The translations under genes and the position numbers were made by a program. From a virus (Duplodnaviria; Heunggongvirae; Uroviricota; Caudoviricetes), in the IMG/VR virus record IMGVR_UViG_2681813273_000006: a stretch of 6,030 nt of DNA; one strand, 5' to 3'. Below are positions 3,023 to 6,030 of this stretch, one piece after another; positions within the stretch are counted from its first letter, which is position 1; every line of letters begins with the position of its first letter. The notes under the pieces are model-generated. The model was not told the DNA's origin and did no database searches. It saw only the letters and a program-made list of their open reading frames with translations.

Positions 3023-3393
3023 TGCGCCATGAGTTTATTTTACCTTATCCGCCGACGGTGAATACTTACTGGCGACGTCGTGGCAGCACATATTTTGTAT
3101 CAAAAGTTGGTGAGCGTTATCGCCGTGATGTGACGCTAATTGTTCGCCAGCAGCGGCTGAAATTAAACCTGTCCGGAAGGCTGGCGATAAAGATTATTGC
3201 AGAGCCACCGGATAAGCGCCGTCGTGACCTGGACAATATCCTGAAAGCACCACTGGATGCGCTGACGCATGCCGGACTACTCATAGACGACGAGCAGTTT
3301 GATGAAATCAATATTGTGCGCGGTCAGCTCGTTCCTGGTGGGCGACTGGGCGTGAAGATTTATGAAATCACAGGTGATAACGATGGCGCGTGA
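3022..3393 (+). CDS. rusA: RusA-family Holliday junction resolvase (endodeoxyribonuclease RusA)
   Basis: 123-aa ORF with RusA signatures, including the acidic motif RRRDLDN and the DDEQ / GGRL region; resembles E. coli prophage RusA. AGGAGG lies 10 nt upstream of the ATG. Confidence 0.85.
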
Positions 3394-3769
3394 TATTCAG
3401 CAGGTTATGGAACGGTGGGGGGCTTGGGCTGCAAACACTCATGAAGATGTATCCTGGGCGTCGATCGCTGCTGGTTTTAAAGGGTTAATTCCGTCGAAAG
3501 TGAAATCACGCCCTCAGTGTTCTGATGATGATGCAATGATAATTTGTGGCTGTATGGCCCGGTTGAACAAGAAAAATCAGGATTTGCACGATTTGCTGGT
3601 GGATTATTACGTAGGTGGAATGACTTTTATGAGTCTGGCACGGAAACATGGGTGTTCGGATACCTGTATTGGCAAGCGCCTGCAGAAAGCGGAAGGGGTT
3701 ATTGATGGCATGTTGATGATGCTTGATATCCGGCTGGAGATGGACAGATACGTAGAACGAATTATGTAG
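3383..3769 (+). CDS. Late-gene antiterminator Q (phage 82 / DLP12 quuD-like family)
   Basis: [28 protein letters not shown]...[16 protein letters not shown]...GKRLQKAEG strongly resembles my recollection of E. coli prophage Q (QuuD-type) proteins. ATG at 3383 has an AGGTGA Shine-Dalgarno 5 nt upstream and overlaps the rusA stop. A strong promoter follows at once. Confidence 0.8.
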
Positions 3770-3773
3770 GTGC

Positions 3774-3803
3774 TTGACCAGACACATTGTCCGGGGCTAT
3801 ATT
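3774..3803 (+). promoter_or_regulatory. Sigma70 late promoter (PR'-like) immediately downstream of Q
   Basis: TTGACC (3774-3779), 18-nt spacer, TATATT (3798-3803). The position directly after the Q stop matches lambdoid late-promoter/qut architecture. A 6-bp hairpin CGCCAG/CTGGCG sits at 3811-3828 in the initial transcribed region. Confidence 0.6.
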
Positions 3804-3864
3804 CCTCACGCGCCAGCAAAATCTGGCGTCGGGATTGGAACCCCGGATAGAGACCGCGACAGAC

Positions 3865-3889
3865 ACACGCCGCGAGCGTGTTTTTTATT
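3865..3889 (+). terminator. Intrinsic terminator (tR'-like), ending a roughly 77-nt leader RNA from the late promoter
   Basis: Stem ACACGC / GCGTGT with loop CGCGA, followed by TTTTTTATT. Confidence 0.6.
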
Positions 3890-4243
3890 GTCGTATGCAC
3901 GCGCACATCTGAATTATGGTGGGGCGCATGGGGGAGCTGAAAAGCTCGCCGGTCGGTTTCCCGGTAGTTCCAACCCTGTGCGTCTCACCACCCGATGATT
4001 GGAACCTGACGGTGTTGACAGTTTCAGGTTTGCAGTTTACATTTCCCCGCGGTGCTCAAAACACCTCGAAAGCGGTATCCACACCCGATAGCCATGTGGT
4101 TTTTTTGTGTCCAGAATTCTTGGTTTATGACCGGGTGTGCGGCTAATACAATACCAGCAATGGAAATACGCCCGCCGACTTTCGACGGTTTTGAGCGCCC
4201 GGTCACCCTCTCAAAAGGGGTAAATCAAAATATTCGAAAGGAC

Positions 4244-4813
4244 ATGTCTATGAATCGCACGTCTATTGAAAAACTCCCGTCACTTACGCATAACCATCTT
4301 CCTGTCATGACAACAGAGCTGCTGGCTGATTTGTACGGAACAGAGCGCCAGCGTTTGACAAACAATTTCAATCGAAACAAAGAACGGTTTATAGAAGGTA
4401 AACATTTTTTCCTGATAGAAGGTGATGCGTTACGAGAGTTGAAGAACGAAAACTCTTTAAGAGTTTCTGTGAAAATTGCCCGTAACGTTCGCTCCCTCAT
4501 CCTCTGGACAGAACGTGGCGCAGCCCGTCACGCCAAAATGCTCGAAACCGATCAGGCGTGGGAAGTGTTCGAAAAACTGGAAGACTGTTATTTCAACCAG
4601 AAACAGCCACCAGCGGCACAAAACACATCTATCGAAAATGATGGATGCGCATTACTGAGCCACTTCGATAAACACGGTCAGGTTGAGTTCACGGAAAAGG
4701 TACCCGCCGATGCGATGGTATGTACTCTGGAACGGTTTAAATTTTATCTGGAGCAACACGGGTGGATCGTTGCCCGTAAAGAGCAACTGGTGGAGCGGTT
4801 GATGCGGTTTTAA
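4244..4813 (+). CDS. ORF6N-domain (KilA-N-related) putative DNA-binding / antirepressor-like protein; start may be ATG 4250
   Basis: N-terminal region VMTTELLADLYGTERQRLTNNFNRNKERFIEGKHFFLIEGDALRELKN ... LWTERGAARHAKML fits the ORF6N domain pattern as I recall it. AAGGA Shine-Dalgarno lies 7 nt before ATG 4250. The ORF-track extension back to 4052 has no start codon and covers leader sequence. Confidence 0.65.
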   Translation: MSMNRTSIEKLPSLTHNHLPVMTTELLADLYGTERQRLTNNFNRNKERFIEGKHFFLIEGDALRELKNENSLRVSVKIARNVRSLILWTERGAARHAKMLETDQAWEVFEKLEDCYFNQKQPPAAQNTSIENDGCALLSHFDKHGQVEFTEKVPADAMVCTLERFKFYLEQHGWIVARKEQLVERLMRF

Positions 4814-5002: not shown

Positions 5003-5079
5003 GGCCCTTTAGCTCAGTTGGTCAGAGCGAGCGACTCATAATCGCCAGGTCGCTGGTTCAAGTCCAGCAAGGGCCACCA
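5003..5079 (+). tRNA. tRNA-Ile2 (anticodon CAT, lysidine type, ileX/ileZ-like); tRNA-Met not formally excluded
   Basis: Manual cloverleaf: acceptor GGCCCTT/AAGGGCC, D-arm GCTC..GAGC, anticodon loop CTCATAA, T-arm GCTGG TTCAAGT CCAGC, discriminator A plus CCA. Closely resembles E. coli ileX. Confidence 0.8.
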
Positions 5080-5080
5080 A

Positions 5081-5157
5081 CCACCACTAGCTCATCCGGA
5101 TAGAGCATCAACCTTCTAAGTTGACGGTGCGAGGTTCGAGTCCTCGGTGGTGGGCCA
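5081..5157 (+). tRNA. tRNA-Arg (anticodon TCT, reads AGA)
   Basis: Manual fold: acceptor CCACCAC/GTGGTGG, anticodon stem TCAAC/GTTGA with loop CTTCTAA, T-arm CGAGG TTCGAGT CCTCG, discriminator G plus CCA. Confidence 0.8.
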
Positions 5158-5159
5158 GC

Positions 5160-5235
<76 letters not shown>

Positions 5236-5238
5236 TAT

Positions 5239-5313
<75 letters not shown>

Positions 5314-5926
5314 GCGAGATTTGAGACGAAGGTTGTTATTTGCACTGACACAATATTGTGTGGGAATGTCTGACTCCTTACCATCTCCTGTTCTGTGATG
5401 TTGTTTTGTTGCAGTTCCAGTGCTCTTTTTTCAGCACCAGAATGGTGCATTGTCGGTCAGGTTACGTAGTGAACCTCTGGCAGGGGACTGATGATTCATC
5501 ATTCTGGTGTTGTAAATATCTCTTCGGACAACTTACAAAATATTCTAAGCAAACCCCGGGAACACACTCTTAACTGCCTTGGCTGGCGGTTTTTTGTACA
5601 GCGCTCGGTATGTGTGAGCTGGAAATCAGATTTTGCATGGACTGGAATCATGCTGTTATTTAGGGGCGAAGAACTGGCTTTTTCTTCCGCCTTCTCACCA
5701 GTAACGATTAGAAAAATAATGAAATGCCCCCCTCCGGGGAGGAGGACCGTAGAAAAAAGGACCCGCCAGCAAAAACATTGGGGATGAACAGCTTTCGCTA
5801 CTCAGATTGCTGGCGGGTAAAGTTCCTCATGAATTAAGAATGCTACGCGATCTTTTTTAATGGAAATGAAAATTATTGTCAATTAGTCGTGCGTGTTTTT
5901 TCATACAATATTGGTAAAGGTGATTC

Positions 5927-5960
5927 AGGCCATCAGAGTTTTGCTGATGGCCTTTTTTCT
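5927..5960 (+). terminator. Strong intrinsic terminator
   Basis: 10-bp perfect stem AGGCCATCAG / CTGATGGCCT with 7-nt loop AGTTTTG, followed by TTTTTT. The reverse strand lacks a T-run, so it is + strand specific. Confidence 0.75.
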
Positions 5961-6030
5961 TTCCGATAGCACAGGTCTGTCGGGGGGGTGCCCCTATTAA
6001 GTTGTCAAGCATGTTATGACCCCTGCGGGG

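Follow-up and report, generated by a model that had tools for sequence, protein, structure and literature searches.

The DNA considered here is a 6,030-nt window (the whole stretch that was analyzed, and to which all positions refer) of a decayed lambdoid prophage, in which a DnaB-type helicase gene and two RusA open reading frames (ORFs) are followed by a Q antiterminator gene, an array of four tRNA genes and, after the tRNAs, ~680 bp without a convincing gene (Table 1). In the left part of the window an IS2-like terminal sequence is found at 7-39, and a 300-nt unit occurs three times (at 1419, 1720 and 2644) together with the two RusA ORFs, with runs of N at 1648-1658 and 2439; taken together, these features (1-60, 1419-2943) point to a rearranged or uncertainly assembled replication/nin region. 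Three exact copies of the Chi octamer GCTGGTGG are present on the plus strand (1072-1079, 2023-2030 and 3595-3602). Directly downstream of Q, strong Rfam matches to c4-a1b1, isrK, C4 antisense RNA and sRNA-Xcc1 are found at 3797-4212 and run into the beginning of an ORF6N (antirepressor-like) reading frame (4052-4813); this block is a P1 immI-like / Gifsy-1 isrK-like module inside the lambdoid late region.

The right end of the window is defined by comparison with related prophages. Nine E. coli genomes match the window sequence up to position 5988, beyond which, at a distance of 7 bp, a class II holin gene begins; the same distance from the end of the shared sequence is seen in loci L001 and L005. 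The window leaves such holin-bearing loci at 5988 and continues to 6030 in Shigella flexneri and in E. coli loci L009 and L011, this last segment being the end of an insertion sequence of the IS110 family; a 398-aa ORF adjoining the IS110-family end matches DEDD_Tnp_IS110 and Transposase_20. As the element begins 7 bp before the position of the holin start codon in related prophages, the holin start is displaced in this copy. Just inside the junction lies a plus-strand terminator-like hairpin that in related loci ends ~35 bp before the holin start. The module at the opposite end of the gene-poor interval, next to the tRNAs (5311-5612), is rare, being found in nine E. coli genomes only and absent from most homologous loci; it holds another plus-strand terminator-like hairpin, a long imperfect inverted repeat (5428-5516) and a GU-rich run (5394-5411) that presumably resembles the R1 seed of GcvB.

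Table 1. Coordinates of genes, hairpins and predicted regulatory elements in the window
Feature	Position	Strand	Remarks
DnaB-type helicase	11-1543
RusA ORFs (two)			replication/nin region
Q antiterminator	3362-3769
Four tRNAs	5003-5310
Terminator-like hairpin with third GCTGGCGG copy as 3' arm	5572-5597	+	hairpin 5572-5591; from terminator scan
Second hairpin, followed by AUUUCAUUAUUUUU	5726-5747	-	from scan; -15.5 kcal/mol in the window
U-rich tail CCUUUUUUCUA	5750-5760	-	directly 3' of stem; predicted RNA 3' end ~5753-5751
Predicted terminator hairpin	5761-5818	-	lower stem is the inverted repeat; RNA 5' arm 5818-5807, 3' arm 5772-5761
Hairpin interior, inner helix	5804-5797 with 5792-5785	-	8 bp; GAAA loop 5796-5793; from fold
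Hairpin interior, unpaired parts	5784-5773	-	12-nt 3' internal loop; also a 2-nt bulge; from fold
Predicted sRNA 5' part GCGUAGCAUUCUUAAUUCAUGAGGAACUUU	5819-5848	-	weak 6-bp hairpin, 5840-5835 with 5829-5824
Predicted sigma-70 promoter	5854-5882	-	-35 TTGACA 5882-5877, 17-nt spacer, -10 TAAAAA 5859-5854
Fur-box-like 19-mer GGAAATGAAAATTATTGTC (plus strand)	5862-5880		overlaps -35 and spacer
Terminator-like hairpin with T-run	5927-5963	+	10 pairs, 6 of them G-C; conserved in homologues
End of IS110-family insertion sequence	5989-6030	-	occupies holin gene position

The inverted repeat and the hairpin it forms

Between these two outer elements, a sequence-only reading of the window had pointed to a 12-bp perfect inverted repeat with a 34-nt loop, and the repeat is real: ACCCGCCAGCAA (5761-5772) and TTGCTGGCGGGT (5807-5818) are 100% complementary over 12 nt, lie 34 nt apart, and constitute the sole perfect repeat of at least 12 bp with a loop of 3-100 nt in the window. 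At least one such repeat appears in 52 of 2000 dinucleotide-preserving shuffles (2.6%, p ~0.03), a chance level that, for the repeat alone, is unusual but not extreme. A further copy of the arm motif GCTGGCGG had been placed at 5588-5595, just before a T-run; its true position is 5582-5589, and the T-run (TTTTTT) is 5590-5595. The motif occurs three times in the window (0.2 expected), and because two of the three matches are the repeat arms themselves the third is not significant; it was set aside as a chance 8-mer within the separate terminator of the rare module described above.

Three functions had been proposed for the repeat, namely an sRNA structural element, a recombination site and a protein-binding site, and only the first of these is favored here. 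A role of the DNA itself, as an operator bound by protein, a recombination or Chi-like site, or a target for insertion sequences, could appeal to the single base by which GCTGGCGG differs from Chi and to the insertion of an IS110-family element 170 bp away. However, arms separated by 34 bp are unfit for a dimer operator, each prophage has the repeat only once, the insertion sequence is joined at 5988/5989 and thus away from the repeat, and the arms coincide with no recombination junction between alleles; a DNA-level site is accordingly considered very improbable.

Folding gave markedly different results for the two strands. On the minus strand the repeat forms a 12-bp perfect lower stem with 8 G-C pairs, as expected of the stable G+C-rich stem of an intrinsic terminator, and above it an inner 8-bp helix (UGAGUAGC/GCUGUUCA) is capped by a GAAA tetranucleotide; the centroid structure has an energy of -28.8 kcal/mol and a z-score of -3.6 (to -3.75), none of 200 shuffled sequences being equally stable. 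On the plus strand the fold is marginal (z = -1.9 to -2.3, with 6-10 of 200 shuffles equally good) and the inner helix is absent. The latter is unable to form there because two of its pairs are G.U: the G.U and U.G pairs of the minus strand become A.C and C.A in the plus-strand equivalent. The proposal of an sRNA structural element is thus partly supported, with a specific role as an intrinsic terminator stem now proposed for it, on the strand opposite to the one on which the sequence-only reading had written it.

The sequence 3' of the stem also differs between strands. Directly 3' of the stem, and on the minus strand only, lies a U-tract (GGGU-CCUUUUUUCU in the window and GGGU-UCUUUUUUCU in other alleles), and a run of U is retained in every allele (UCCUUUUUU in the window, UUCUUUUUU in the others, with one U less in one contig). 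The plus strand instead has an A-run 5' of the stem and AAAGUUCC 3' of it, with no U-tract. Three features are therefore confined to the minus strand, namely the U-tract, the two G.U pairs of the inner helix, and the GAAA loop. In one respect the hairpin departs from the usual compact form with a loop of 3-8 nt, in that the stem encloses 34 nt comprising the inner helix and internal loops, and for this reason it is not listed by a standard terminator scan; it would represent an atypical terminator, with a stem-loop 58 nt long that is interrupted by a large internal loop. The CC that precedes the U-tract in the window allele is suboptimal and should weaken termination. A second minus-strand hairpin a short distance downstream may act as a back-up terminator, but it is not an essential part of the element, because it is weak or different in other alleles and is deleted in a metagenomic contig (L090).

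The late operon is, by gene context, transcribed through the hairpin on the plus strand, and the 12-bp stem can form in either strand, so that the hairpin might instead serve within the late transcript, ahead of the lysis genes, by affecting RNA stability, processing or pausing. In that transcript, however, the U-tract is missing, the inner helix does not form and stability is barely greater than that of shuffles, and the conserved TTGACA-17-TAAAAA on the minus strand (see below) would be left unexplained; a plus-strand function is thus regarded as unlikely. The reading that is preferred, and that we consider probable from the strand-specific features and from those described below, is that the 12-bp repeat forms the lower stem of a minus-strand Rho-independent terminator that ends an unannotated sRNA of ~97 nt encoded in a decayed lambda-like prophage.

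Putative promoter and Fur-box-like site of the predicted sRNA gene

The predicted sRNA would extend over ~97 nt from ~5848 to 5752 on the minus strand, antisense to the phage late operon. Its gene is situated in the 'moron' region of that operon (between pR' and the lysis genes), with the tRNA array on one side and the holin position on the other, and it opposes late transcription; the plus-strand hairpin at 5927-5963 lies upstream of its promoter. The putative sigma-70 promoter is found ~90 nt upstream on the minus strand. All alleles have the same TTGACA and a spacer of exactly 17 nt, even though 4 positions within the spacer differ; when alleles are compared, indels fall only outside the stretch from -35 to -10. 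The -10 hexamer, TAAAAA, has no conserved final T, and the promoter is consequently missed by a generic promoter scan; it is called here from the perfect -35, the optimal spacing and the conservation, and the sRNA start (5848-5846) is set by the position of the -10. A plus-strand promoter predicted at 5692-5720 was rejected, its hexamers being changed among alleles and indels occurring between them.

In the mechanism that we infer, RNA polymerase would start at TTGACA-17-TAAAAA and transcribe the variable 5' region, then the GAAA-capped inner helix and then the 12-bp G+C-rich stem, after which the RNA would be released within the U-tract. The hairpin and U-tail would at the same time provide an Hfq-binding 3' end of the kind typical of enterobacterial sRNAs.

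The -35 and spacer are overlapped by a 19-mer resembling a Fur box. Against the Fur consensus GATAATGATAATCATTATC (used as printed in PMC4506495) the window allele, which is the weakest, matches at 14 of 19 positions, the L074 allele at 15/19, the commonest chromosomal allele, the ExPEC-remnant (NQ3-type) allele and the ColV plasmid allele each at 16/19, and the L008-type allele at 17/19; by the same measure the K-12 ryhB promoter, a known Fur target, scores 16/19. A perfect 13-nt core (AATGATAATCATT) is present in the L008-type and NQ3-type alleles. Among 20000 shuffles of the 43-nt promoter, 115 reach the observed match in the case of the window allele, as against 0-18 in the case of the others. 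The consensus scan also picks up the iroB site known from Fur ChIP-seq in CFT073; the Fur-box strings themselves are absent from the supplements of that study, whose strain may not carry the element. The Fur-bound 'c1255' of the CFT073 data is not this element; it corresponds to the iroB divergent promoter. The Fur match was noticed post hoc, and Fur control of the predicted sRNA is held with less confidence than the sRNA reading itself; such control, suggested by the overlap of the site with the promoter, would probably repress the sRNA when iron is plentiful.

Distribution and conservation among alleles

A 221-bp core of the element is present in 1508 records from 1427 of 5426 complete E. 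coli genomes (~1/4), at 915 chromosomal and 643 plasmid places. Among GTDB species representatives it is confined to E. coli and S. flexneri, and it has no match among 50,697 records of sequenced phages. In intact prophages the core lies directly before the holin gene. In many ExPEC chromosomes and in ColV-type plasmids, a piece of ~365 bp that holds the predicted sRNA gene is joined to an Rz fragment by one shared deletion (loci L007 2372-3672, L013 1386-1978 and L016 1503-2619), and on the ColV-type plasmids the Rz fragment is followed by iss. In one plasmid the terminator of the predicted sRNA is truncated by insertion of IS1.

About ten distinct alleles were gathered from E. coli genomes, GTDB species representatives, IMG/VR and metagenomes, the IMG/VR and metagenome scans contributing only a few of them. 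The alleles are ~85% identical overall and keep the TTGACA, the 17-nt spacing, both helices and the U-tract, with variation, including indels, in the predicted 5' part and in the flanks. The 5' part of the sRNA is the most variable region (13 of the first 34 columns vary among six alleles); in the hairpin, 18 of 20 pairs are invariant among six alleles. Over the ~ten alleles, varying columns amount to 5 of 40 paired versus 23 of 65 unpaired positions (Fisher p = 0.012). Across the ~ten alleles the lower stem shows three single changes only (two A.C mismatches and one A-U to G-U), and the hairpin pairs show no compensatory double change. An uncompensated A.C mismatch of the stem is found in two alleles, one of which, the ColV plasmid allele, is common; in the L074 allele the inner helix is without its two bottom pairs. 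Conservation and co-variation of the arms had been proposed at the outset as a check on the repeat, and the first is strong in the homologues, the second not seen; because the arms are nearly invariant across the ~ten alleles, this outcome is uninformative rather than negative. Conservation is itself weak proof of function, since the alleles are young and the whole module of ~370 bp is fairly well conserved. When the loop was allowed to differ, the stem pattern was matched for the most part by G+C-rich hairpins of environmental viruses that are unrelated to the element.

These distributions bear on the explanation that the repeat is a chance or neutral palindrome, seemingly conserved through recent horizontal spread of the DNA that carries it. 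Such an explanation would accommodate the ~3% chance of one such repeat per window, the lack of covariation, the confinement of homologues to E. coli and Shigella with few, closely related alleles, and the fact that much of the high prevalence comes from one remnant, linked to iss, whose copies have the same deletion end points. It does not comport with the significantly lower variation of paired than of unpaired positions in the same alleles, nor with the position and orientation of the element, which are those of proven sRNA genes (see below). Furthermore, a joint accident is unlikely to have given every allele its U-tract, together with a suitably distant promoter and a Fur-like site. A neutral origin is for these reasons given a minor share of the probability; if the RNA is not made, the repeat is an ordinary leftover terminator-like hairpin.

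The alleles also bear on a coding role of the repeat within a small plus-strand gene. The only ORF annotated across the region encodes a hypothetical protein of 63 aa (WP_000502162.1), which RefSeq places at the counterpart of 5778-5969 in a number of genomes; many genomes, however, have no annotation at the site, the reading frame is intact in one allele group only and is broken or replaced in the window, ExPEC-remnant, ColV and L074 alleles, the alleles are separated by 1-nt indels, and the overlapping ORFs have no Pfam or PHROGs match. That the repeat lies within a protein-coding gene is hardly credible on this evidence.

Comparison with known small RNAs

In lambdoid prophages of EHEC, the moron site that follows pR' carries convergent Hfq-bound sRNAs, among which are the anti-sRNAs AsxR and AgvB (Tree et al., PMC4104026), and two further sRNAs, PasA and PasC, have been validated in EPEC (Pearl Mizrahi et al., PMC8550237). 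PasA is antisense to its neighbors and lies between esterase and holin genes (PMC8550237 table S6), and the Pas genes directly adjoin the holin/lysozyme operon and end in a stem-loop with poly-U (Zhu et al., bioRxiv 10.64898/2026.05.13.724894). Prophage late operons are thus an established location of convergent Hfq-bound sRNAs, and in EHEC and EPEC the sRNAs of lambdoid prophages that oppose the late operon are known to alter the regulatory circuits of the host; the present candidate is unannotated and not in Rfam, no family of which matches at the element. Literature and datasets searched by sequence string and by topic yielded nothing on this RNA sequence.

The closest parallels are with PasA and PasC (EcOnc51/52; EPEC and EHEC). 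Like these, the predicted sRNA gene is situated just upstream of the holin position and directed against the late operon, would give an RNA of ~80-100 nt from a promoter with a TTGACA -35, and has a 3' stem-loop with poly-U in which GCCAGC is part of the terminator 5' arm; in both cases a plus-strand terminator is found between the sRNA gene and the holin gene, and a second hairpin or gene copy downstream. In sequence, however, there is no significant similarity (best BLAST E = 1.4), and a covariance model of the predicted sRNA scores three Pas copies at 10-13 bits (E 0.5-2) as against 7.6-9.5 bits for generic terminators; homology to PasA/PasC is therefore not demonstrable by BLAST or covariance model. 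The predicted sRNA differs further in the 34-nt structured insert of its terminator and in its Fur-like box, of which the Pas promoters show none on inspection by eye. The hosts differ as well, the predicted sRNA being found in ExPEC, ColV plasmids and Shigella, and PasA/PasC in EPEC and EHEC. Rfam 15 has no entry for PasA or PasC either.

AsxR and AgvB (RF02703 and RF02702) share with the predicted sRNA a moron-site location downstream of pR'. They are arranged in convergent pairs, and in the window the plus-strand hairpin at 5572-5597 faces the minus-strand terminators; the module 5311-5612 that contains this hairpin may thus supply the plus-strand member of such a pair. The stx2 (late) transcript is opposed by AsxR (PMC4104026), just as the late operon is by the predicted sRNA, and AsxR/AgvB likewise combine a conserved 3' part with a variable 5' part (PMC4104026). 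AsxR and AgvB are 51-60 nt long and have known sponge targets (FnrS and GcvB), in contrast to the ~97 nt of the predicted sRNA, and neither RF02703 nor RF02702 gave a match, whether the window was scanned at E <= 1 or the interval 5560-5990 at E <= 10. The candidate is thus predicted to be a prophage late-region antisense sRNA gene outside the Pas, AsxR and AgvB families. Its likeness to AsxR/AgvB suggests a role in trans, as an mRNA regulator or sRNA sponge; a cis-antisense action against the late transcript is a possible alternative.

Resemblance to RyhB concerns the promoter and the terminator. The putative Fur-box-like site is of the same quality as that of ryhB (14-17/19 here and 16/19 in ryhB), the commonest chromosomal allele and the ryhB box being identical at 17 of 19 positions by direct string comparison; the size is similar, and GCCAGC is present in the terminator stem of both. 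The two differ in location, the predicted sRNA being carried in a prophage or plasmid island, and homology to RyhB was rejected (8 bits with the covariance model). A more speculative proposal, which is tentative and well short of probable, is that the module encodes a horizontally transferred Fur-repressed sRNA, a second and mobile iron-responsive riboregulator beside RyhB that is kept after prophage decay and whose companions, in ST131-type chromosomes and on virulence plasmids of the ColV type, are iss and the iro genes. If this were true, the sRNA would connect host iron starvation with virulence or with the networks of core sRNAs, one of which it might sponge in the manner of AsxR/AgvB; and if the sRNA is made and Fur-controlled, extraintestinal E. 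coli would carry a mobile iron-responsive regulator that is missed by current annotations.

A separate observation concerns the Pas loci used for comparison. In E2348/69 (locus L003 765-870) a second PasC-like copy is found directly downstream of PasA, with its own TTGACA and terminator, and this copy probably accounts for a 'minor' PasA product of 236 nt in PMC8550237 table S6.
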